The notes beneath the pieces were generated by a model, which saw nothing but the letters and a program-made list of their open reading frames with translations, made no database searches and was not told the origin of the DNA. Below are positions 8,527 to 23,905 of a stretch of 23,905 nt of DNA, in pieces; position 1 is the stretch's first letter; each line of letters begins with the position of its first letter. The DNA is from Sarea resinae (Eukaryota): contig JAPEUD010000011.1 of the NCBI GenBank assembly GCA_026026165.1, positions 496,001 through 519,905 of the forward strand, given 5' to 3'. A program made the translations under genes and the position numbers.

Positions 8527-11400
8527 TAGTTCTAGCTAGAGAATATATTAGCATGCCTTCTATTAGACAAACTTCTTACCTATGCTGCACTAAACATCTT
8601 TAAATAATGTTAGTCCTCTAAGAACACAGTGTATATTGTTATTCTGTTATTCTACACCTTAGTGTGTATATAAGCAGCAATCTAATACAGTTAACTAAGG
8701 ATAAGCAGTTAATCTAGTTAGGTAGTGATAAAAATAGGTACCTTGCTAGTAATACCTCTAATATTAACTTTAATATCTTTAGCGCATCCTATAAATAGTG
8801 CTAGCTTTCCTTTAATACTAATTATTATAGTAGCTAGTTAAGGAGTCTAACTTAGCCTAAGATTCTTTGCTATTAATAGGCTTATTAGATATATCTTAGC
8901 ACTACTATCTAATAATTCTCTTATTCTTCTTTTTCCTTTAATACTTACTTCTGCTATTATACACCTAGCAGCATATAATGTAGAATTTAGCATTTCTTTA
9001 TTAGTATAATTATTGCTTTCTATCTTTCTAACTATTACTAGGCGATCTATATTATGCTGTCTAGCTATAAGATAGCCTTCTAATCTTCTACCTAAAGAGT
9101 ACAACTTATCTCTAAGGTTCTTAAAGAAAAGCTTCTAAACTTTAGGCGCATTTAAAAGAAGATCCTTAACTATAACATAGTTAAGCTGCTAATCTAGTAT
9201 TATATCTATAATAGAAGTAGAGTTAGTGTCTTCTCTAAGGTAATTAGACAATCAGCGTTAATAAGTCTTTTGTTAATGTGTTTCTTCTACCTTATCTATT
9301 AGTTCTAGCTTAGCAAACTCTACTCTCTTCTTAGAACTACTAGCTAGACTAAGATATTACAAAGGCTGTTCTTTATAACAGACTATATCTCTCTTCTTAA
9401 GAACACAACTACTCTAGTACATCCTAAGGCAGATGTTTTTAGCTGCAGGCAACTTTTCTTCCTCTTAAATTCGCCTCTTATAGACTCTAGCATCTAGGTC
9501 TTATATAGGTTTCTATATAGTAGGGTTAGATCCTTACCTAAGGATTCTCTTAGGTTGTCTTACTAAATAGACATTTAATTAGTTATAGTTATTAGCTTCT
9601 ATATCTATATTATCTAGCTTAAGATCTGCTATATAAATAGAACTAACTCTTACTAAGTTAACCTCTAAACTAAGGCTTAGTTGCTCCTTCCTTTTATTAT
9701 ATATTCTTTTCTATTCTTTGTTAGCAAACAAGGCTTAATATTTGCTAGGAGAAATATACAACTCTGCTTTACCTTATCCTTTAAGACCCTAATATATTTA
9801 ATAACGTTTATTAAAATAAATCTTTCTACTTATAAAGAGCTGCTATATTAGCAGGCAATTAGCAAATCTATAGCGCTAGTCACTGTATCTAAAACATCTA
9901 GTCAATTAAGTATAGTTTGTATCGCGAGCTAGATCTACTCTATTATTCTACTAGCTAGTCTAGTAGTTTAGTGCGCTTATAACTTTTAAGGCAAAAGATA
10001 GTATCTAAGTAAAGAGCTTAGCAGTGTTTACAGCACTTGCTATAACTGCCTTAATTAGAATTATTAAGCTAGCTAACTTGTCTGCTAATTTATCTATAAC
10101 CTTATTAACCTTCTTACTTACTATTCCTTCTATATAATCTTATACAACTAGAGGTTAGAGTAGCTCTACTATAGCAGCCTTTAGAGCTAGATGCTGTCCT
10201 TTAATTAAGGTCTTTACTATCTTTATTAGCTCTGTCTTATTTAGCTTCTGCAGTGCCTATATAGATTAACATTGCTTAATAGCAATGTTAAAGATCTTCT
10301 TAAAGTTAATATTAGTAGAGTTGTAATTGTCTAGGTTAATATAGCCTTATGTAATAACTTTAACTTAGATCTCTTAGAGAAGGCCTTAGAGAAACTATAA
10401 CATATAAATATAGGTATTAAGCTTGTTTTTCTAGCATAGAGTTTAAGAGATACTTTAGAACTAACAATAATATTAGTAGATCTTCTCTGCATTTAAATAG
10501 AGTTTCTCTTTAAAGGCTTTAAGGTAAGTTTAGAAGTTGATTTGCTGCTCTACATCCTAATTAGAGTAGTCTTTTAGCAGCGATTTCTTAAACTTATCCT
10601 AATCTATAAGATACTCTAGTATAGTCTTAATACTATAAGATATAATACTCTTATAATAACGTAGGAGTCGCTTAAATATCTTAGTCTAGTTAAGCTAGTA
10701 ATCCTTACATAGTCCTTTATATCTCTTAAGAAACTCTATAGCGTTTACCTTATTAAAATATAGTATGCTATAGGTCCTAGAGGATAGTATAGGAGTAAGA
10801 TAATATATAGTAGGTAGAAATACAGTGCTAGCAGCTATTATAGGTAGTGTTAGTAATTCTAGTAAACTGTCTCTTAAAAAGTGTAGAGAGAAACGTGTTT
10901 GTATAGCAGTAACAATTGCAGCTGCAACAGAGTTTGCTGTTTCTTAAATAATTGCTTAAACAAATTATGTTAACTTATAAAGGCACTTGTCTTATTTGCT
11001 ACTTTTAACTTTCTTATGTTTAGACCTTGTCTTACTCTTACTAATCTACTTATCTCTAGTAGCGCCTTAAACATCTCTTAGCGCACTCTTTAACGTATAA
11101 TAAAGCTGTTCTTTCTATCTATTCTCTTTATATACTACGTGATAAACTGCTTTATTGCTAAATAAACTATAAGCTGTTAAGGATCGCCTCTAACCTCTTT
11201 AGATAAATAGCTGCTGCCTAACTATTTTAACAATAAGATCTAGCTAGTCTAGTAGAATTTTTCGTTGTGTAATCTCTAAACTTTATATCTTTATTTCTAA
11301 ATTCTTTTAAGGTCTTTGCAATTCCTACTTCTTATCTCTCTTATATTGTGCTAACCTTTTAGAGTCCTAATTGTATAGGCTAGGTTTTGTACTAGCCTTG
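8517..11400 (-). pseudogene. gag: Gypsy gag-protease ORF, RIP-disrupted (start approximate)
   Basis: Capsid-like YFNKVNAIEFLKRYKGLCKDY at ~10700-10770. Zinc knuckle CFRYSD*RYRFANC (de-RIP C-x2-C-x4-H-x4-C) at 9855-9896. Aspartic protease LLDSSA (LLDSGA) at ~8900-8915, within ORF-track 8847..9104. All three share one frame, which ends at TAG 8517-8519. Confidence 0.88.
8520..8526 (-). promoter_or_regulatory. -1 programmed ribosomal frameshift slippery heptamer T TTA AAC
   Basis: Minus strand reads TAT TTA AAC TAG in the gag-protease frame. The -1 frame is the frame of the RT N-terminus. Confidence 0.8.
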
Positions 11401-11479
11401 CAGATCTAGCAACCCTTCTATATATTCTTTAAGCAGTGTTTATACTTATCTATAGAGCACTTTCTAGTTAAATCTATAT

Positions 11480-11897
11480 TGTTTAAGCCTTATATAAGTC
11501 ACTAATATAAGGGATCAAACTAGATCGCACTAGATAAGTGCTAGATAGTCCTAAAGATATAGGAACTACTAAATTGTAATAGCGCTGCTATACTTAATAG
11601 TTGTTAAGTGTATTACTATCTTAGGCCTTACTGCTAATATATCTTAGAGAACTTAAATAGGTAGCAGAACAAGCGTATTAATTAATATAAGCTATTAGCC
11701 TATAGCCTAGTAACTAAGCAATAAGAAGAAGAGAAGAAAACTAACGCGCTAACTGCTTGCTTAACTAAATGCTAGAAAAACTAATAACTCTTTAGAATGT
11801 ATAAAGAACTAATAATACTCTCTTTCTAAACCCTTAAGGAATATAACTCTACTACTAATACCTAATAACTAAGCTGTTACTAGTTTACTCTATTACA
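11480..11897 (-). repeat. 5' LTR of the gypsy element (left boundary inferred)
   Basis: 11532-11897 matches 1-367, and the right end gives a minus-strand TGTAA start. The left boundary is a guess at the TGT at 11480, because the partner LTR is cut by the window. Confidence 0.85.
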
Positions 11898-12160
11898 CTA
11901 GTAGTAAAGCGTTATCTAGTAGCAAGACAACCTTTATATACTGCTATACTAGCTAAGTTCTTACGTAGAGATTTGCTACTAGTAATACAATAAGCCTTAG
12001 TAATAGACATTCTCTTACCTTTTCCTTTTCCTTTCCTACTAGTACTAGGGATAGTCTTATAGGTAGTACACTTAGTACAAGCTATTGTCTAGTAAAATAT
12101 TACTATTAAGTGTTACTAGTAGAGGTAGGAAAGAATAACTTACTGTATTAGTAACTATAA
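11898..12160 (-). pseudogene. Histone H3 N-terminal-tail-like gene, RIP-mutated and truncated by the gypsy insertion
   Basis: Minus strand 12055 to 11915 reads TIPSTSRKGKGKGKRMSITKAYCITSSKSLRKNLASIAVYKGCLATR. Reversing transitions only gives TGGKGKGKGKRMSITKARRITGGKSPRKNLASxAARKGRPATG, versus H3 [27 protein letters not shown]. Putative upstream intron 12143 to 12056 (GTAAGT...AAG). Confidence 0.7.
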
Positions 12161-12367
12161 TTATGTTAAGAGAGTAAGAGTGTAGTGTAGAGAGTGCTAA
12201 AGGAGAATCTTTAGTTAGTATTAAAGAAAGAATCTAGAGAGTTGTCTATAGTTAGAAATTATTAGCTAAGTGCCTTTATAGTCTTAAATATTACCTAAAT
12301 GTGTTACTATTAAGTAGTAGTTCTTAAACTTACCTTAACCTTAAAACTTAAAGAGCACTAAGAGAGA

Positions 12368-12820
12368 AATCTTAATAATGCTAATAATAGAAGTAATAAA
12401 GTTTATTAAGTCTTATTAGTTTAATAATAGAAGTGATAAAGTTAATAAGAGAGAGCAATCCTCTTACTATAGAAGAAAGTTGCTAATAATATAGGTAGTA
12501 AAGTTAAATTAAGTAGTAGACCTATATAATATTAAGGTAAACATTCACTATAAGGTATATACCTTAGTTAGTGTTATTAGCTAGTTAATAAGGTATATAC
12601 CTTGTAGTAAATGTTATTAACTAATTAATAAGGTATATACCTTATAGTAAATGTTATTAATTGTTTAATAAGGTATATACCTTTTACTTAAATCTTATGT
12701 GCCTAGTTCTACCACGCAATTTAACTTTACTACCTATATTATTAGTAACTTTCTTCTATATAAAGAGAAATGCTATTTTTTATTAACTCTATTACTTCTA
12801 TTATTAATATCATTAAGATT
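12368..12820. repeat. Inverted repeat (~120 bp arms, 12421-12540 and 12684-12807) enclosing four AAGGTATATACCTT palindromes
   Basis: Perfect 14-bp palindromes start at 12552, 12590, 12630 and 12670. Arm sequence ATAGAAGAAAGTTGCTAATAATATAGGTAGTAAAGTTAAATT is matched by its reverse complement at ~12718-12760. Confidence 0.92.
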
Positions 12821-12899
12821 TTATTAATTTTATTAATCCTATTAACTTTCTAACTGTTTAGGCAGTAGAAAGTTATAAGATAGGTAGCTAATTACTCTC

Positions 12900-14820
12900 T
12901 AAATCACTTATATCACCTATAAGCTCCTCTTAGAATAAGGCAGCTATAGAGAATACTAGTATTATAAAGAAGAGGTGAGTTTTAAACTTCTAAGTAAGAT
13001 AGAGTAAGGTGAAACTAACTTCTTCTTAGAAACTATAGCCTACTAGCAGCTTAGGTCTAAGAGTAATATATTAAGGTAATAATAATACTATAAAAGGCTT
13101 ATATTAGTGTAAGAAACAATAAAAGCTTAAGAAAGCAAAATCTAGCATAACTAAGCTAAATCTAGAGATAGAAGAATATAAAGACAATAATTAACTGCCT
13201 ATAGATCTTAATAATAGGGCTGTAAGCAATTCTCTATATAGTAGCAGCAGTTAGAAAGGAAGTAGTAATAAGAAGATAGATAGTAAGGCTAGGTAATGCA
13301 TTTAGGTAATAATATCTGTAAATATCTGCTAATAGTGCTACTCTAGTAATAGCAGCAGCGATAAAGTTAAGATAGTCTCTATAGTTAAGAAGATAAAGGT
13401 AAAGTTCTTAGATAAGGTTAGAAAAGCAAAGTTCTTAGACAAAGTAAGAAAGGTATATAAGAAGTAGAAGTAGTAACACATTCTAGTAACAATTCTAAAC
13501 ACAAAGCTAATAACATAATAGGACTATATCTAAGAGATAGAAGTAGAAAGAGACTAACCTTAATAATAAGCTAGAGAGCTTAGACTCTTCTACTCTTAGA
13601 AAGAGATATCTAAAGTAACACATTTAGGTAACATTGTTTGCTAGTGACTAATATTAGTGCAACTTATAGTGCAACCCCTATAACATCCTCTTATTCTAAG
13701 AGAACATTTAACCTAGAGATAGCTAGCCTAGTAGAACGTGTAAAAGCCTGCCTATAAAGACGTTATACTAGTAAGATAAGGCCTAGAATAGTTCTCTATA
13801 GCAAACAACAACAGATTGCTAGAGCGTAGCTTAAGGAAGCAAAGTCTAAAGCATTAGAGTTAGAGCTAGATAGTAAACTTAGCGATACTAAGTTTAAGAA
13901 GACACTAAAAAAAGCAGATAAAGCAGATAAGAAAGCAAAATCTACTTTAAGAGGCAAACTCTATCGCGAGAATAATTACACTAGTATAATAACAGCATAA
14001 TAATAAGACTTTAAAGAGACTGTTATAGACTCTAAAATAGACAAATTAATAGAACAACACTTTTTCCTCTACTAGTCTGCTAAGTAGGTTACTATATAGC
14101 AGTAAAAGGCTATTAAAGTAGAGAAAGCAAAGGCTAAAGATAATAAGCAGATAGTTAAGGATGTTGTTAATATCTTACTACTTAAAGACAATAGAGATAG
14201 CTAACCTAATAGTAGTGCTAATCCTAAGGTAACACTTTTAAGTAACGTTTCTTTATAGCATTTGTCTAATTAGTTTAGTAGAGATAAAATTTAGATAAGC
14301 CTAACTTATTATTTAGAGCATAGAGTAAACGCATTAGAAGTTGCTTGCTAAAAGTAGTCTGCTGCTATAAGAGAGATATCTACTGCTATAGCTATAATAA
14401 TCTAGTAGAAGCTAGTGATCTTAATCTAAAAGAGGTAATGTTAGAGTTTATAGAGCAGGTTAAAGACTATACAACTCTCTCTAATAGTAATATAGAGGCT
14501 AGGACTAATTTTGCTAGGTTTAGCAATTTAAAAGCAAAAGTGTTTCTATTATCTAATAAAGATATTAACCTAATCTTAAGTGATAAAGAAGACTTTATAC
14601 TGCTAACTATAGGAGAAAAAACTTAGCTAGAGAATATTCTTAAAAGAGAGGACCTTGCTATTACTAGATCTGCTATAGAGAAGGCTCTACTAATAACAGC
14701 TAAGAATGTTCCTATTAATACAAAGGAGAGTAAGAATAACTCTACTAATAATGCTAAAGAGAAGGACTTTAGTTCTAGTGCTACTAAAGATAGTAATAAG
14801 TAGAGAGGTAGTTATAGCTA
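12900..14820 (+). pseudogene. Multi-intron gene of unknown function (charged, likely helical protein), RIP-disrupted; ends approximate
   Basis: Fungal-type short introns, e.g. 12975-13029 (GTGAGT..CTAAC..TAG), 13293-13346, 13615-13657 and 14229-14278. The last intron joins the long frame 13683-14228 to the frame of ORF-track 14345..14626. No family was recognised. Confidence 0.6.
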
Positions 14821-15189
14821 AGTGGCTTTTCTTTATTAGTTTATATCTGCTTAGAGGTGGATTTTCACTTTTTCTCTAGAATTTAGTTTACTAAAAAGGT
14901 AACACTTACTAGTAACATTGTATATATTAATTACATTAGGAATGCACATTCTCTTAATTAAATTTTAGCTGTATAAACTCTCTCCTAATAACTCTAGTAG
15001 ATAGCTATATTGTATTACTCTCTTTATAGTCTCTTTACTATGTTTGTTTAGTTATACTAAACCTAGCAACCTTTAATATTAATATTTAAGCAAATACTTC
15101 TCTAGTTAAAGGCACTTCCTACCTCTTTACTCTGCTATATATTCTAAGGCCTTCTGCACTTTCTTATCGCTGTAAATTTCTCCTTTACA

Positions 15190-17968
15190 ATGTCTAATTT
15201 GTTTAAAACATTAGACTATAAAGAACTTAGAGATAGTATATAAAGGTCTACAGCTATTAAGTCTAAACCTATAACTATTACTTTAGCTTTAATTCACTAT
15301 GTTCTAAAGGTGTTACAAAGGGATTCTACATAGCGAATAGTTATCTAGCAGCAATTATATTATAATACTTTTATCTTCTAGTAGCAGCAGACTGCTTATA
15401 CAGATATAGGTTAATATAGAAGCCCTTAATAGAATTCTAAGATATAGAAAAGCATAACCTAGTCTCTCTTCTACTAAGTTGCTAATGTTATAACTAGTTG
15501 CTTAGAGGTAATGTATTAATAATACAGATGTTAGTAAGAGTATTCTAGTCTTAAAGAGATAGGCACTTCTGTAATAAAACAGCACTATAGCTCTTTAGAG
15601 TGTGTTTAGTCTCTTATAGCAGGTATAATACACACACTTAAGGCTCTTTAGACTATAGTAAGATATTGCTATATATAATAGATCTCTTAACTAATACCTC
15701 TATCCTTAATACTAGCAACATGCTTTAGCACTAAAGATTCTCTAAACCTTAGAGCTATTCTCTTAGTTAAGCTAGTAACACCTTCTTCTTAAGATAATTC
15801 TATTAGCAAATCTTCTATAGCAGATTATAGAAAACCACTAGTTTAAACAATACTTTCTCCTTTACTAGCTAGGCCTTTAAATTCTAAGGCGATAATAGGT
15901 TTATAATAACATTTATAATCGATATACAAAGATCTTACTAAGGATTCTACAGAGACTAGGCCTAGAAACTAAAATTTCTATTGCACTAGATATATAGCAG
16001 AGTCTAAATAAGATATCTTTTCTTTCTATAATAGAGTATTTTATTAACAAAGACTAGAATTACTAGGAAGTCCTTCTAAGGTTTAAAAAGATAACTAAAG
16101 AGCACTCTAGTTATAACATAGCTATGTTACTACTTAATTAACTTTAGTGTTTTAACATTTAAGTTTGTTTTTAATGTTTATAGTAACGCTTTTAAGTAAC
16201 ATTACATTATAGGATTATATACTAGCTGTAACAACAGATAACGCAGGTAATAATAACATAATACATTAAGAGCTAATAAGTCTACTTACTAATCACTATT
16301 AGATTGTATAGGATTATAAGATTATTTATATACCTTGCCTTACACATGTTATTTAGCTTACAGTTGTAGCTTTTAATAAGTGCCTAAAAATTACTGCTTT
16401 AAACAAGTTTATATAAGATACCTAGTTAGATACAAACTAAGAGCTACTTTAGCAGCTTCTTTTTAAAGACTCTTTTAGCAGCACATTGTAAAAGGTAAGT
16501 GCTAATAACCCTTATCTATTACTACCTCTAAAGTTTCTAGATTTATACACTTGCTATCTATATTACTGCTTTATTACAGCGAACTACACGCTTTTATAAT
16601 CTGCAGCTAACGCTAGTTAATATAATCTAAGATATTAAAACTTAATAGAACTTAATATATAATATGCTAAAGCAGGTCTAGTAGCTGTAAGATACTCTTT
16701 AGATATTTCTTATTAGTAAAACTAGTCCTACTATATATAGAACTTATGTCTCTCCTACTAGTTAGGACTATATTCGCTATCTAATTGTCTTACTAAAGCT
16801 ATTTAATAATTAGATAAGAGCTGTGTCTTAGACTAAAGGTGTAACTATCTATAAGACTTAGTTTATATACTCTTAGATTTTTAAGCACTTAGAGAAGTAT
16901 CTAAATAAGATACAGCCTAAGCAGATACTCTAGAAACAAGAGCTTACTTCTGCTATAGAAGTAGTAAAGACTAAGCTCTCTAAGTACTACTAAGATACTA
17001 AAAGAGTATAAAAGAGAATGTTTAATTTAGCATATATCTTTAATCCTTTAATAAGGCTTAATCTATATAAAGTATATTACCTAAATCTATTACCTTTACC
17101 TTATCCTCTAGAAATGTTTTGCTAATAGCTAAGAAGTCTAATAACTAGGGCTATAAATATTTGCGAAAGTACTAGCGCAAATTTAAGGACTATTATTAGT
17201 TGCATTATATAAGAACTAAAGTTACCTCCTTAGATATTACTACACTCTTTATATTAGCATTAGATATTAATTCACTTATATAGGCTAAGACACTTTAGAA
17301 ACAATATTACTTTGTTATAGATTTAGTTAGTTAGTATCTATCTTTGCTAGCTACAGATTATAAGGATCCTTTATAGGTAACACTTTTAAGTAATATTTCT
17401 ATATATAAGTGCTAACATTCTACTAGTTCTAGCAATCACACTACTAGCCCTTACTTAAACAAATAGTAAAAGACATTCTTACTATACTTAGAGCTGCTAT
17501 TAGTGTTAAATAGACTTTTAATAAGGTATAAAACCTTATTACCTTTTATTAAAGTCGCCTTTTAGTAGAAACAGTTTAGAACACTATAGTTGTAAAGTAC
17601 TTTAATTGTGATAAACTCTGCTTCTATATAGGTAAAGATAAATCTAACAGTATTTCTAAGGACACTAATTATTAACACACGCTATTAGCTGAATTTAATA
17701 ATTATTTACTTGTTATTAGTAATAATAATAAGCTAACCTTAGTTAATAGTAGTCCTATAATATAGGATAACACAGACCTATATAGGTTTTCTAGTAATAA
17801 GCACTCTTTACTACTTCTATCTCTACCTATAGTGCAGCTAGATAAACCTACTTTATAGTAGCAGTCTTTGCTTTAACACTCTAGGTATAACAACGCTTAA
17901 TCTATATTATCTTAAAGAAAGCGCCTGTATTTAACTGTAGATAATTTATTTATTAGGTTAAAGGTATA
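15190..17968 (+). pseudogene. hAT-superfamily transposase with 5 introns, RIP-disrupted
   Basis: ATG at 15190. BED-like finger (GTSVIKQH...C) at ~15450-15605. ISIALDI*QS (D at 15989), AVTTDNAGNN (D at 16237), PCLTHVI (CxxH, 16336-16347), DIKT**NL (DVKTRWNS), and dimerisation domain KDILTI..AAISVK*TFN (VER; E>K at 17508). Introns 15658-15715, 16163-16212, 16495-16540, 17072-17133 and 17377-17426 each restore the frame. Confidence 0.93.
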
Positions 17969-18330
17969 GAGGCTCTCTTTTAGAACTAGTCTATTTCCTT
18001 CTTAATTGTATAAATAGTTACACTTGTAGTAGTTTGCTTTATATATACTATAGCATATATTTATCTCTATTAGAGTAGAATTAGTTCTAGTAAAACATAC
18101 TATATTATAAAGGTTTAGAGGATGATTTAGTGGTTTTTATATAGTGTAGATTATATAGAACACTATAAACTAAATATATAGAGTGTATTATTATACTATA
18201 ATTCTTATTCTATAATTCCTATAGTTTTATTGCATTTACTCTCTAGATATTACCTCTATATATTACCTTTTAATAATCTTATCTTATTAATCTACTCTTT
18301 ATCTTATTAATTAACCTGTATATACCTAAT

Positions 18331-18455
18331 AGGTAGGCTATAGGCTCTACAACTAATTAAGCCTACCTAAACCTAACCTAATTATATAATTAGGCAGGCT
18401 AACCTACCTAAACCTTAATTTAGGCTAAGTACCTAAACCTAAGTAGATAGCCTAT
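18331..18455. repeat. Cluster of short ACCTAA(A)CCT/TAGGC repeats, probable hAT subterminal or terminal region
   Basis: Repeated ACCTAAACCT-like units and a perfect palindrome CCTAATTATATAATTAGG at 18377-18394, ~370 bp after the transposase end. Confidence 0.55.
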
Positions 18456-18456
18456 A

Positions 18457-20200
18457 AAGAAGTATCTAGGTGTAATTGTCTGCTTAGAAAGAATCTAAAT
18501 AAATAAGAGCGTCTTTATATAATAAGAAGATAAATAATAAGCCTTAGGCTAAATTATATTAAAGTGAACTTAGTTAATTATAAAGAGAATACACTAATAG
18601 GCAGACAATATATATCTAATAACACTTAGACTACCTTATACTTAGTAGAACAGCAATAAATAAGCAGTAAGGTAAATTAAACTATAAGAGAATCACCTAT
18701 AAGATTCTAAGATCTTCTAATAAATAGATATCCTATATATAGGTCTACTACTAGTTAGAAGGCAGTAAAACAAACTAACTAAAGAGATATCCTTTAAAAG
18801 CCTAACCTTTTTAACAGATAACTACTAAGAGAGCTTTATATATAAGATCTGTTAATAAACACCTTCTAGAACAAATTATTAATACTACTTCTACTATTAT
18901 TAGTAAGTCTTACTCTTAGAGTACTTGTTTTTAATTTTGCTTATAGATAATAGGTTCTAAGCAATAATAAAGGACTCTTATCCTCTAGTCTCTATTCTAA
19001 AGCAGTTAGTATTAACTTAGACTCTACCTCTATATATGTTTTTAATAAGATAGATACACTAAAAACACTACACTAATTATCTAGCACTCTATAGACATTT
19101 ACAAATAATTAGAGTGCAGGTTTAAGTTAGCTTCTTACACTAGATATAAGAGTATATATAAAGGTTTAAGTGTATTTAAAAGAGTGCTATCTACACTATA
19201 GGTATTAGAATATTTATCTAATAGCTAAGGCAATAATAAAAATATATATTATTACTTAAGACTCTTTCTTAAAAAGCAATAGTATAGCTACTATCTGTGC
19301 TAACATATAGAACTAGGCTTATACAAAGGCAAAGGTAATTAAGATAGAGCATTAATTTCCTTATTCTATTAAGGACTCTAGATAATACAAAATAGAGCTG
19401 CTTATATATATTAAACCTATAGTAAGTAAAACTATTAGGTGATATTTCTACTATCTACCTACTAACTCTAAATAATTAAATCTTATTAGCTATAATTTAG
19501 AATAAGCTAGTAATAAAGATATATTATATTATAATGTTATTAACTAGTAGTAGACCTATATAATCTGCCTCTTACTAAACTAGAACAACTTAAGAGAAAA
19601 GTAAGTTAACTACTAGATTAAGATAGTTTTAACTGTTAAGATATATCTATCTATATACAAATCTCTTTACTTATTTTAGTTAGCTAATAGTTTTTAGAGA
19701 AGGAAAAAGAGATTATTCTACCTAGTAATTATATATATTATACTTAAAGAGTTCTTTAATAAAGTCTAGAAACTAGCAAATATTAGTTATATATTAGATG
19801 CTTTTAAACAGATTACCTATTAGCTAATATATATTGTATCTACTATACTCTATTACACTCTCTTTAAATAAGAAGAAAGAAGCTTTACTTCTTAAGATTT
19901 TACTAGAGATAGTATAAGTAGTAAGTAACTAGCTAGATATAATAGCTAATAAATAATATAATAGCTAATAAACACCTAAAGGTCTACTAGCACTAGGTAG
20001 CTACATAGAATTTTCTAAGCAGTTAGTAGTAAAAAGCTATCCTTCTACTAATAAAGAAAGCTATTAATAATAGTAATACTTTAACTCTTAGAAAAGTCTA
20101 TATTCTAATAGAAGAGTTCTATAATAATAGAGAAGAGAATCTAGAGTATTAAAAAGTATTACTTAAAGAACAAGTTAAATTACAAACCTAATTAGCTAGA
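18457..20200 (+). pseudogene. RIP-degraded coding relic(s) of an unidentified repeat
   Basis: Protein-like stretches such as RLFYLVIIYIILKEFFNKV*KLANISYILDAFKQITY*LIYIVSTILYYTLFK (~19700-19870), and intron-like GTAAGT...AAG at 19601-19640. Family not identified. Confidence 0.3.
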
Positions 20201-20846
20201 GCAGATACTAAGTAGTATATTAATAGTTTATATTATTATTAACTAACTAACCTATTTTCTTAGTTAGTAGATTTGCTATATAATTAACACTATTTTTTGC
20301 ACTATATAGACTCTATATAATAAGTTATCTATACTATATAGTAGCTACTAAAATACATGTGTATTCTATATTTATTAGTAATATAGTAGGTGTCTATATA
20401 TATTTTATCTAATCTCTAGAGATTAGTAAGTATAACTACTAGAATCTACTATAGTCTAGTAGTAGGTAAAAGAATAGTTATATAGTTAATACTAATATAT
20501 TATATAGAAGATATATAAAGTTAGTGTATTCTATATAGTACTATAGTAGCTGCTACTTAAACTACTATATATATAGCGCTACAGTATTAACTGTTTATAA
20601 TGTAAGTAATATAGGTTATATAGCGCACTTATAGTCACTTATAGCACACCTCTCTTTTTACTAATATAGTAGAATCTATACCTACTTAATACTAGATAGT
20701 AGTTAATATAAATAGGTAGTTTATAAAATATTAATTAATAAAGTAGTATAGTAAATAAAAGCAGTTATTAGTTTGTTTAGGCTATATAGATCTACTTTAT
20801 AGGCTTGCTCTATACTATACTATAGATATATATACCTAATAATAAA

Positions 20847-20997
20847 GTAAGTAGAGAAAGGTGCTAAAGAAGTATAGAATATTTGTTTATTATAAAGTTA
20901 GAGATTCTAGCTATAAGAGTGTAATGCAGTTAATATATAGACTTAATTAAACTTAACTAACTTACTAAAAACTTCTAGTAATAACTAATTACATAAC
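20847..20997 (-). repeat. Older copia LTR fragment (opposite orientation), interrupted by the next element
   Basis: Reverse-complement match to ~21367-21510 and direct match to ~23802-23905. It is more TpA-converted than either. Confidence 0.85.
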
Positions 20998-21532
20998 TAT
21001 TAGAATTATAACCTTAATTCTAGTCACTCTTAAGTATCTAGACTATTATAAAATATTATATAATAGGTAGTATAGATATATCTAGAAGCTTTTATAGACC
21101 TATAGAAGCTAATAGAACTCTATAAAAACTCTATAGAATCTTATAGAACATTCTAAAAGATTTTATAGCTATACTAACTAAGTATTACTATATGCTAACT
21201 AAGTATCTAGAACCTTCTAAAACTCTCTAGAATATTCTAGAACTATCTAGAAGTCTATAGAATCCCTTAGATATCTATAGAACTCTATAATATAAGGGTT
21301 ACACAACTATCTCCTAACTTTCTTACAAAGCATATGTTATTATCAGCCTATTACTTACAAATCACTTATGTAATTAGTTATTACTAGAAGTTTCTAGTAA
21401 GTCAGTTAAGTCTATATATTGACTGCCTTACACCTCTATAGCTAGAATCTCTAACTTTACAATATATAATTATTCTACACTATACTTCTTTAGCACCTTC
21501 CTCTACTTATATCTTTGTGCTACCTTCTAACA
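20998..21532 (+). repeat. 5' LTR of a Ty1/copia element (535 bp)
   Basis: Termini TATTAGAA (RIP'd TGTTRGAA) and TTCTAACA form a short inverted repeat. The 3' end matches the LTR end at 23779. Internal TAGAA-rich repeats. Confidence 0.8.
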
Positions 21533-21541
21533 GTTACAAGC

Positions 21542-23778
21542 TCAAATTCCTATAGCTGTCCTAAATCAGTATTAGAATGCACTGTTACAAGCACAGTCCT
21601 AGAAGGTACTGCTGCAAAGCTATAAAAAGGCACTGTTACACCTAAAGCTTCCTATAGCTGTGTAAAATCCAAGTTAAACAGCATTGTTACAGAGTAGATT
21701 CTTAACTCAGGTGCAACAACATATATCTGCTATAGAAAGGAACTCTTTAACAACCTTAGACCCTATAACACTACTGTAAAGTAGGGTAACACTAGTAGTT
21801 CTACTATAGCAACACGCATAGAGGATATCAAGCTAATATTTACCCTAACAAATCAAGTTGTAAATATTAGAGATGTCCTATACATCCCTAACTTTAGTGT
21901 AAACCTGCTATCTCTAGAGGCAATTATAAATAAGGGCTCTAAAGTTAACTTCAGCCCTAAAAATGTCCTTATCCTAGATAATAAGGGTAGTGTCACTGCT
22001 AAAGAGACCTATACTAATAAGCTTAGTGTCTTTTAGACTAAGGCTATACCTATAGTGCTAAATAGCACTATAGAGGATAATAGCCTAGATATATAGCATA
22101 AAATGCTAGGATATATAGAGGAAAGCGCTCTAAAAAGGCTAGAGAACAATGTAGAGCTTAGTGTTAAGTCTAAAGACTTAGATATTAAAGACTGCACTAT
22201 TTGCTTAGAGGCTAAATTTACTAGATATGCTAGTGAAACCCTTGTAGAAAAGCCTAAGGAATACCTTAAAATTGTATCTAGTGATATAGAGAGTCCTATA
22301 AAACCCCTAACACTTAGTAGTAATAAACACTATATAACCTTCTTAGACCTAGCTATAAAATACCTTAATATTTACCTTCTAAAACATTAAAGTTAAACCT
22401 TTAGCAAATTCAAAGAATATATTGCTAAAGAGGAAAATCAAAGCCTAAAAAGGCTAAAAAGATTTTACTTAGATAATGCTAAAGTCTATAATAACACTGT
22501 GTTCAAGGAATTTCATGCTGAAAAAGGCATTATAGACTCTTATAATGCACCTTATACCTCTAAACAAAATAGCCTAGCAGAAAGGATTAATAGGACCTTA
22601 CTTAATAAAGTAAGAGCCCTACTAAATCAGGCTAATATCCCTAAAAGATTCTAGAGAGAAGCTATCCTAGCTGCTATATACCTCTATAATAGGACCCCTA
22701 ATAGCTCTATAGGCTATAAAACACTCTATAAGCTAAGGTTTAATAAAAAGCCTAACCTAGATCACATAAAAATCTAGGGTTCTTTAGCCTATAAGAGAGA
22801 GCCTAAAGAACTAATCAAAAAATTAGATAATAGAGCTAAGCCCTATTACCTAATCAACTATAGCTCAAATCAATACAAGCTGCTAGACTCTAAAACAGCT
22901 GAAACAATCTAGGCTAGAGATGTTAGGATTATAGAGAACACATTCTATCATTCTACAGAAGGCTATACCCCTAACCTAGAGGCCCTAGAGGAGCTAGAAA
23001 AGGATACATCTGATCTAGAGGATAAAAGTCCTATAGGTATTGAAAATTCACCTCCTACACCTGCTGTAACAGTATAGGAAGAACCTGTAACAGTAGAAGA
23101 TTAAAGTTCTATAAGTGATGACAATTCAGTCACACCTGACATAATAGACACTGATAGTGAATCTGATATAGATAAGCTAAGCAGTGAATATTATGCAAAT
23201 ATAGCTAGCACCCCTAAGCAGCAACAGCACTATGCAAACTTCATGCAAAATTTCATAGTTTGTAACAGTCTGCATACAAGGGGGAATCACACTGTTACAG
23301 ACACCTATAGAAGTCCTATAGATGTGTCTGATCCTAAGAGCTATAGGGAAGCTCTAAAGTCACCCTATAAAGAGGAGTGGCTAAAATCAATGCAGAAAGA
23401 GCTTACTAAGCTAAAAGAGCTAGGAGTTCTAAAGCTAGTCCCTAGACCTAAAAATGCCAATATAATCAATAGCAGGTAGGTCTATAAAACAAAGCTAAAC
23501 CCTAATAATACAATTAACAAAAGGAAATCTAGGTGGGTTGCTAGAGGCTTCCTACAAAAGCAAGGGGTTGACTATACAGAGACTTTTGCACACACTAGCA
23601 ATCCTACAGCTATAAAACTACTACTAGTCATAGCTGCTAAACTAGATCTAGAAATATATTAGTAGGATATAGCTTCTGCATTTCCTAATGCTAATCTAGA
23701 TAATCCTATCTATATAGAGCAGCTAGAGGGTTTTATAGAAGAAAAAGGCAAAGTCTATCTTCTAAATAAAGCCTTATA
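21542..23778 (+). pseudogene. pol: Copia pol (protease, GAG-pre-integrase/integrase, RT N-terminal part)
   Basis: *ILNSGATTYIC (WILDSGATTHIC) at 21695. I*HKMLGYI...CTICLEAK (HHCC). SDIESP, LDNAKVY and QNSLAERINRTL (DDE). RT: PKSYREAL, *VYKTK, KSRWVARGFLQKQGVDYTETFA, *DIASAFPNA, KALY. Includes ORF-track 22103..22390 and 23243..23479. Confidence 0.95.
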
Positions 23779-23905
23779 TGTTAGAAGGTAGCACAAAGAT
23801 ATAAGTAGAGGAAGGTGCTAAAGAAGTGTAGTAAGAATGATTGTGTATTGTGAACTTAGAGATTCTAGCTATAGAGGTGTAAGGCAGTCAATATATAGAC
23901 TTGAC
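23779..23905 (-). repeat. LTR end of a younger same-family copia copy inserted antisense into RT
   Basis: Begins TGTTAGAAGGTAGCACAAAGATATAAGTAGAG, the exact reverse complement of the LTR end at 21532. It interrupts the KALY codons. Confidence 0.92.

Follow-up and report, generated by a model that had tools for sequence, protein, structure and literature searches.

How fungi acquire new spliceosomal introns is unsettled: look-alike introns are known, whereas the route by which they are copied is not. Look-alike introns that proliferate have been described in Pezizomycotina (PMC3609843, PMC9860276 and PMC8469720; these papers, and PMC6710886 below, are cited from excerpts). Introner-like elements (ILEs) are presented as long, structured introns in hundreds of copies, and low-copy introns and introns duplicated within the same gene, both of ordinary length, are described beside them (PMC3609843). 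Ascomycete introners are described in the excerpt of PMC9860276 as having neither target duplications nor inverted repeats, and ILEs are said to decay until they are like ordinary introns (PMC3609843, PMC9860276). A hAT transposon of ~9.5 kb that carries histone H3 and is heavily mutated through repeat-induced point mutation (RIP) has been found in Pseudocercospora fijiensis and related Mycosphaerellaceae, and the excerpt of that paper reports no internal introns or repeats in it (PMC6710886). Here we analyze a 23,905-nucleotide stretch of Sarea resinae (contig JAPEUD010000011.1, positions 496,001 to 519,905; hereafter the window), in which a motif of the form GTAAY-N8-GTAAY recurs in the introns and other non-coding DNA of a hAT transposon. 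We see about an even chance that the motif with its immediate flanks constitutes a 5' end common to a group of related short spliceosomal introns in the genes of this multi-copy, RIP-destroyed transposon.

The exact motif occurs 12 times on the two strands of the window, eight times on the plus strand and four times on the minus strand. All 12 copies are located within 12099-18266, and the other ~17.7 kb of equally mutated DNA contains none. The original prediction had counted 11 copies; all 11 are real, and the copy at 13063-13080 (plus strand) had been overlooked. By chance, 100 dinucleotide-preserving shuffles gave a mean of 0.37 copies (maximum 3), and 200 simulations from an order-3 Markov model, fitted to the window, averaged 0.5 copies (maximum 4). 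The window contains 153 GTAAY pentamers (89 plus, 64 minus), and same-strand pairs 5-40 nt apart are found 12 times at distance 13 and at most 3 times at any other distance. A position weight matrix made from the 12 sites scores all of them at 20.0 or more and nothing else on both strands of the 23.9 kb above 13.7; the next-best sites are 19426 (plus, 13.7) and 22307 (plus, 13.3). With a 26-nt matrix, the 12 sites score at least 21.4 and the next best 15.4. The N8 spacer is conserved too, since 9 of the 12 copies have three or fewer mismatches from GTAACACWTTTARGTAAC, and the sites are therefore copies of one ~22-nt sequence, not two free half-sites. Alignment with flanking sequence gave a ~22-nt core, RGTAAC-RCWTTTAR-GTAAY-ATT, with little shared outside it. 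Judged by this alignment, the 18-mer is the core of a ~22-nt module.

The motif had been predicted to be confined to introns and non-coding DNA of the hAT region, and had not been noticed by eye in the retroelements. Both observations held: it is found only in non-coding parts of the hAT unit, and the two retroelement parts of the window, which have the same mutation bias, contain none of the 12 copies. A 21-nt pattern had five single matches in a metagenome collection, all in ordinary AT-rich contigs with normal TGA counts, which is the chance level. A description of the motif was not found in a literature search that did not extend to the founding ILE paper (van der Burgt et al. 2012) and its supplements, nor does the motif occur in four supplementary files of PMC4457414. 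Among sequencing runs, one DNA run was found to contain the stretch and no RNA run was listed; 7093 contigs of the DNA run were aligned to 9000-23905. Two weaker sites were not counted. At 19426, the other genomic copies have G at 19430, which makes an ordinary GTAAG, and the antisense stretch 16505-16522 resembles the 17076 copy by eye (14 of 18) and scores below 4 with the matrix.

The motif copies, the introns and the two genes in which they are located are as follows.

12099-12116, minus strand: motif copy 27 nt downstream of a minus-strand GTAAGT, its second GTAAT 10 nt before CTAG (by eye); intron status putative
12290-12307, minus strand: motif copy 26 nt downstream of a minus-strand GTAAGT; intron status putative
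12975-13029, plus strand: first intron of gene M (by eye), canonical GTGAGT...AACTAAC...CTTAG, without the motif
13063-13080, plus strand: motif copy, candidate start of a 34-nt intron (13063-13096) in the gene M leader
13097-14800, plus strand: gene M, an orphan lysine-rich open reading frame (ORF) of five exons, upstream of the transposase
13293-13346, plus strand: gene M intron of 54 nt, motif first (13293-13310), placed by frame continuity
13473-13521, plus strand: gene M intron of 49 nt, motif first (13473-13490), placed by frame continuity
13615-13669, plus strand: gene M intron of 55 nt, motif first (13615-13632), placed by frame continuity
14229-14281, plus strand: gene M intron of 53 nt, motif first (14229-14246), placed by frame continuity
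14899-14939, plus strand: putative 41-nt intron, motif first (14899-14916), between gene M and the transposase start
15469-17650, plus strand: hAT transposase pseudogene with a BED-like part, RNase-H-like core and dimerisation region
16163-16212, plus strand: transposase intron of 50 nt, GTTTGT...TATAG, motif internal (16183-16200)
16495-16540, plus strand: transposase intron of 46 nt with canonical GTAAGT donor and no scored motif; profile continuous across it
17072-17111, plus strand: transposase intron of ~40 nt, GTATAT...CTCTAG, with an antisense motif (17076-17093)
17377-17426, plus strand: transposase intron of 50 nt, motif first (17377-17394), followed by the hAT dimerisation region
18249-18266, minus strand: motif copy preceded by AAAAG on the minus strand; candidate minus-strand intron start

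Reading-frame analysis revealed that the motif coincides with the splice donors of gene M. When 13293-13346, 13473-13521, 13615-13669 and 14229-14281 were removed, each from the first G of the motif to a YAG, one frame ran across the five exons with 25 stops in 529 codons, and the other two offsets had 59 and 110 stops. Here the exon model was run to 14898, and the first in-frame stop after 14626 is near 14800. The unspliced sequence had 63-87 stops in 600 codons, and use of the second GTAAY as donor gave 46-86 stops in 547 codons. In all five exons, no other frame does better than the spliced one, for which the chance is (1/3)^4 by our own arithmetic. Furthermore, two of the 40 fixed differences listed between the window and the DNA-run contigs improve the splice sites of gene M: other genomic copies have G at 13614, giving AAG|GTAAC, and C at 14279, giving a CAG acceptor. 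Gene M itself had no Pfam family, no homologue in a large protein collection and no useful match in the Atlas (best 0.76). It may be a cargo gene or a second gene of the element.

Homology searches defined the introns of the second gene. With one transposase exon as query, phmmer found 11 proteins at E ≤0.001, all of which contain a TTDNA(S/G)NN core. Full-length relatives, mostly from Penicillium, were then used as queries, and tblastn with 13 of these homologues recovered the same three core exons from 11 of them. A profile of 28 homologues matched with domain i-E values (independent E-values) of 1.7e-21 (15758-16159), 2.2e-16 (to 16500), 4.3e-25 (16544-17071) and 6e-4 (to 17597), while its match to the BED-like part at 15469-15612 was weak (i-E 0.14). 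Pfam gave PF05699 only, at E 0.015, below the cut-off. By these matches the gene is a hAT transposase, showing both the RNase-H-like core and, at the C terminus, the dimerisation region. The profile runs seamlessly across the junctions 16162/16213 (profile positions 288-290) and 16494/16541 (377-380). One homologue (P0029) places residue 229 at 16159 and residue 231 at 16213, and since the homologues leave exactly one residue between these positions, the intron is 16163-16212. Here the motif does not begin until 20 nt into the intron, and its second GTAAC stops 12 nt short of the acceptor. The exon before the intron with the antisense motif ends at 17071 (profile position 553); the frame needs an intron of 41 nt there, not 40, so that a border may be off by one or an indel may be present. 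Intron 17377-17426 joins an exon ending in ...DPL to the dimerisation region (profile 636-695), which begins right after 17426.

Frame continuity and the profile junctions thus place these introns seamlessly in coding sequence with splice signals, splicing itself being predicted. The original prediction that several copies coincide with an intron donor proved true for 13293, 13473, 13615 and 14229 in gene M and for 17377 in the transposase. It was also right that some copies are inside introns, one of them antisense, as the homologue tblastn and the profile placed 16183 and 17076 there. Motif base 1 is intron base 1 in five of the six sense introns with verified borders, and these five are 49-55 nt in length. 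For a ~50-nt intron the chance of such placement is about 1/30 per intron by our own arithmetic. The copies at 13063, 14899, 12099 (minus), 12290 (minus) and 18249 (minus) are in leaders or other DNA outside the verified introns, and that at 12099 is upstream of a minus-strand ATG at 12010. In every motif copy the donor is non-canonical. A separate CTAAY or TTAAT is present in each motif intron, 9-22 nt ahead of the YAG (by eye), and the exons flanking the motif introns are unrelated to one another.

Two side observations concern these sites. At 17418-17432, the opening 6 nt of the following exon (TTCTAG) come close to repeating the 9 nt with which intron 17377-17426 ends (TTCTACTAG), and this small tandem duplication at the acceptor makes a second AG 6 nt downstream. 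In addition, one DNA-run contig aligns to the window in pieces (13471-13491, 16622-16979 and 17374-17396), with joints 13491 to 16622, 16979 to 17374 and 17396 to 17458 that are at the ends of two motif copies. It may be a diverged paralogue in which motif copies were better kept than their flanks, as seen in a single contig whose sides measure 21-23 nt.

Comparison with described intron families revealed both likeness and difference. Like ILEs and introners, the window introns are similar spliceosomal introns with dissimilar flanking exons in different genes and with their own splice signals (PMC3609843, PMC9860276, excerpts), and they are likewise without obvious target-site duplications or terminal inverted repeats (TIRs). 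Unlike ILEs, which are about twice the normal length in the excerpt, they have an ordinary length of 41-55 nt, their likeness is confined to the first ~21 nt, folding prediction gives no stable structure and the donor is non-canonical. Moreover, their copies known to date are in one transposon, in at least two genes plus leaders, one being antisense. Since whole-length similarity, extra length and structure were not found, we did not assign them to the ILEs; they appear to be a family of 5'-alike introns akin to ILEs but shorter, unstructured and similar only at the 5' end. They resemble the 'same gene duplications' and 'low-copy introns' of PMC3609843 in ordinary length and folding energy and in that several occur in one gene and its neighbour, but the introns in that excerpt are near-identical over their full length, whereas here only a 5' module is shared. 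With the sister introns of Hypoxylaceae, which involve spliceosomal twin introns (stwintrons; PMC8469720), they share mutual similarity, a filamentous ascomycete as host, seamless insertion at new positions and the lack of flanking duplications. The sister introns, however, derive according to the same excerpt from a twin intron whose donor was disrupted and whose terminal inverted repeats measure 45-55 nt. In the window introns, neither such inverted-repeat symmetry nor an internal intron splitting a donor was found.

Several other intron types and products were considered and rejected. A self-contained 30-nt mini-intron was suggested by YAG ends at nt 28-31 in 6 of the 12 copies (by eye); TAG is very common in this DNA, and the unit is too short for a fungal intron. 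The motif introns do not fit the U12-type signals, an RTATCCTT donor and a TCCTTAAC branch site. Twin introns were also rejected, as the segments that lie upstream of internal copies measure 20-27 nt and lack the required preceding G (by eye). Footprints of hAT excision, that is, two 8-bp duplications with filler, would need one identical target sequence at 12 sites.

How could such introns have arisen and worked? The module-bearing introns, 41-55 nt, would lie in genes of a hAT transposon of ~9-10 kb, and in most copies the first GT would serve as the splice donor, unusual in having C at +5, and would be followed closely, within the intron, by the U-rich spacer and second GTAAY. For modules in an intron's 3' half (16183, perhaps 12099 on the minus strand), 10-12 nt separate the second GTAAY from the acceptor. 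Other introns have a CTAAY branch site there, so that the second GTAAY could stand in as branch site. The module thus resembles a donor combined with a branch-like element. A single intron start would have spread by copying to further sites, in two or more of the element's genes, in the way introner-like elements multiply, which agrees with a side remark in the original prediction that the motif gave rise to introns. As the module stayed nearly unchanged while the rest of the intron drifted, it probably worked in splicing while the element was alive. We think that both components are true, namely that the introns are related by descent and that ~22 nt were kept by selection. The transposon's own genes have at least five verified introns, and up to eight, with the same first 22 nt, and more copies inside and antisense in other introns. 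A copied module would make a compact system for the study of donor choice, branch-site use and copying.

Several results weigh against this reading. Identity over the first 21 nt averages 78% among the six motif-first introns, and beyond ~21 nt the introns are barely alike; a test of whole-intron likeness came out negative. The 3' remainders score 5.87, compared with 4.16 ± 0.65 (maximum 6.6) for random window segments and 3.67 ± 0.38 for shuffles, and a branch site and YAG in common would account for roughly this much excess. Whole-intron copying would therefore need long drift together with selection on the 5' part. No stable fold was found in any of the 10 introns tested (z -0.04 to 2.0), nor any Rfam family in the window, although RIP may have erased a structure. 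Lengths of 41-55 nt are no longer than those of ordinary fungal introns, and C at +5 fits the usual fungal donor poorly. A donor role explains neither the verified internal copy (16183) nor the antisense copy in a sense intron (17076). In favour of the reading, none of the 40 fixed differences listed of the 1021 between the window and the DNA-run contigs is in an 18-nt core, a sample that does not establish conservation of the core among paralogues.

The restriction of strong conservation to the first ~21 nt, with the rest of the intron different, points to a function of the module itself, and it would also be expected if the module were a control element acting at the RNA level, its ancestry being secondary. 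In that case U1 small nuclear ribonucleoprotein (snRNP) or a specific RNA-binding protein would bind a site made up of a weak GUAAC donor, the U-rich spacer and another GUAAC, and the splicing of all introns of the element, hence transposase output, would be switched together. We regard this as possible but unlikely. It agrees with the non-canonical donors in every copy and with two donor-like sites 13 nt apart, of which the second, if used, would shift the frame and gave a much worse model of gene M. The other introns of the same genes have canonical GTGAGT or GTAAGT donors without the module, so that the module marks a subset, and the two UAAY cores resemble branch-site and STAR-protein sites. 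Pseudo-5' splice sites reportedly govern intron 3 of the P element in a parallel manner, and the Mer1 intronic enhancer is said to do so for meiotic introns of yeast. However, the element has no recognizable RNA-binding domain (no Pfam family except the weak PF05699, and a gene M without homologue), and the antisense copy at 17076 cannot act as the same RNA. A control element would mean that a fungal transposon gates its own expression via splicing. Under both readings the motif can mark this transposon family, of which the window copies are dead. The introns and the element could also be tied more closely, in that the 22-nt module would form the portable core of a micro-introner relying on the hAT element for its spread, which is decidedly improbable in our estimate. 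An element-encoded protein or element transcripts would recognize GTAAC-N8-GTAAC, the module would act as donor one way and as branch site or acceptor context at the other intron end, and introns would be seeded in both orientations in every gene that the element carries. If this were true, fungal introners, for which we know of no machinery so far, would have an autonomous partner.

The original prediction saw a binding site of 13-bp period, for the BED domain of the transposase or a cargo protein, hidden in introns. In such a reading, two half-sites 13 bp apart in double-stranded DNA would be bound by the BED finger, a cargo protein or a host factor, and they would be placed in introns and leaders since these are free to vary. 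Elements of the hAT type carry short repeated transposase-binding motifs, as in maize Ac and medaka Tol2, and those motifs are likewise numerous and in both orientations. The copies here are in both orientations (eight plus, four minus), one internal and one antisense copy in verified introns show that position and strand are not fully fixed, and a weak BED-like part is present at 15469-15612. The repeats of Ac and Tol2 are within a few hundred bp of the element ends and unrelated to splice sites, whereas the copies here are spread over 6.2 kb of the interior (12099-18266 of 11896 to ~20650) and mostly stand first in introns. A test for clustering at the ends, which are not exactly defined, was negative, and no inverted symmetry between the left and right copies was found. 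Five of the six verified sense introns start at motif base 1, which a merely hidden site would not explain, and 11 of the 12 copies are readable as sense to a nearby ORF (verified for plus-strand genes only). Because the start of the motif is the splice donor, and with the copies spread over 6 kb, a pure transposase-binding array is disfavoured, and we hold it to be very unlikely. The strong mutation bias narrows the vocabulary of this DNA, with TGA and TCA almost absent and CCA, CCG, TCA, TCG and ACG at 0.02-0.18 of expectation, and unrelated intron starts might have converged under RIP-type mutation in AT-rich sequence, or the motif might be due to chance. But the dinucleotide and order-3 null models gave 0.4-0.5 copies with maxima of 3-4, ~17.7 kb of equally mutated DNA has no copy, and the metagenome scan was at chance level. 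Moreover, C-to-T and G-to-A changes cannot create C at +5, and RIP does not target the A/T positions that the spacers have in common. Since the A/T-rich spacer and C at +5 are not products of C-to-T change, RIP convergence is excluded on this ground, and chance or convergence as an explanation is close to refuted.

The window has ~30% G+C and a RIP-type signature throughout: CCA is at 0.03 of expectation, CCG at 0.02, TCA at 0.13, TCG at 0.11 and ACG at 0.18, whereas GCA is spared at 1.46, and TpA/ApT is 1.7-1.9. Thus, C was lost after a pyrimidine and before a purine, and also in ACG. TGA and TCA are almost absent on both strands, and the standard code leaves only five ORFs of at least 90 aa. 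A ciliate-type code (table 6) opens six frames because TGA and its complement TCA are nearly absent; we rejected it as an artefact of the mutation bias. Between the DNA-run contigs and the window, 1021 places differ, of which 936 are transitions, mostly A/T in the window and G/C elsewhere. The hAT unit is therefore multi-copy and RIP-mutated. Contig depth is even from 11982 to ~20430 and falls in the 20431-20927 bin, and several contig joints are at 20644-20669; together these point to a right end of the unit near 20650. Depth is ~3 times higher in the 11485-11981 bin, which contains a long terminal repeat (LTR).

11532-11895, minus strand: LTR; together with 1-365 it makes a 365-nt direct repeat (95.6% identity)
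11897-12010, minus strand: start of an ORF, 38 codons, cut off by the retroelement LTR
12367-12821, no strand: foldback of ~455 nt between divergent ORFs, its arms 104 nt long at 87% complementarity and 43 nt long at 86%

Because 1-365 is repeated at 11532-11895, an LTR retroelement of ~11.5 kb on the minus strand fills the left half of the window. The LTR ends at 11895, and the motif-bearing unit therefore starts in the window at 11896 and continues past the retroelement, which is inserted into the hAT unit. The unit probably comprises 11896 to ~20650 plus a part beyond the retroelement outside the window. The original prediction that all three genes belong to one unit is compatible with the contig depth, which is even and multi-copy between 11982 and ~20430, but the unit is larger than had been thought, its left part being cut by the LTR. 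A clear TIR of the unit was not found in the window, where only weak alignments were obtained and from which the left end is absent, and an 8-bp duplication was not found either. Pfam searches with the long frames of the unit and the neighbouring retroelement, read through with X, gave no family. In the minus-strand retroelement sequence at 8700-11000, a gag zinc knuckle and a protease-like motif were seen by eye, and Pfam gave no match there. One DNA-run contig joins 18059 to 11513, which suggests that the same LTR is at another place in another copy.

The minus-strand ORF at 12010 has a pattern of K, R, L, A and S that looks like the histone H3 N-terminal tail; it is a lead only, and HMMER gave no histone match for this ORF. 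Like the H3-carrying hAT transposon, the unit is an unusually long hAT element with many RIP-mutated copies, AT-rich blocks and a transposase that is hard for Pfam; unlike it, the bias here includes CpG besides CpA (PMC6710886, excerpt). Neither the TIR nor the 8-bp duplication was found in the window, from which the left end of the unit is absent. The motif would be new for that family. The Pseudocercospora lineage also has introner-like elements (PMC3609843, excerpt). We treat the link to the H3-carrying family as a lead only.

Two further features of the window were noted. At 21405-21532 and 23779-23905, inverted 128-nt repeats (93%) surround a much less mutated stretch. A protein search with a 124-aa copia-like ORF gave no match; by eye, copia-type ORFs are present between the repeats at 22097-22390 and 23105-23479, and depth there is 4-10 times that of the hAT unit. 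The loop of the foldback at 12367-12821 contains three 40-nt tandem repeats, each with a AAGGTATATACCTT palindrome, and the foldback may represent either a short insertion or a promoter region acting in both directions.

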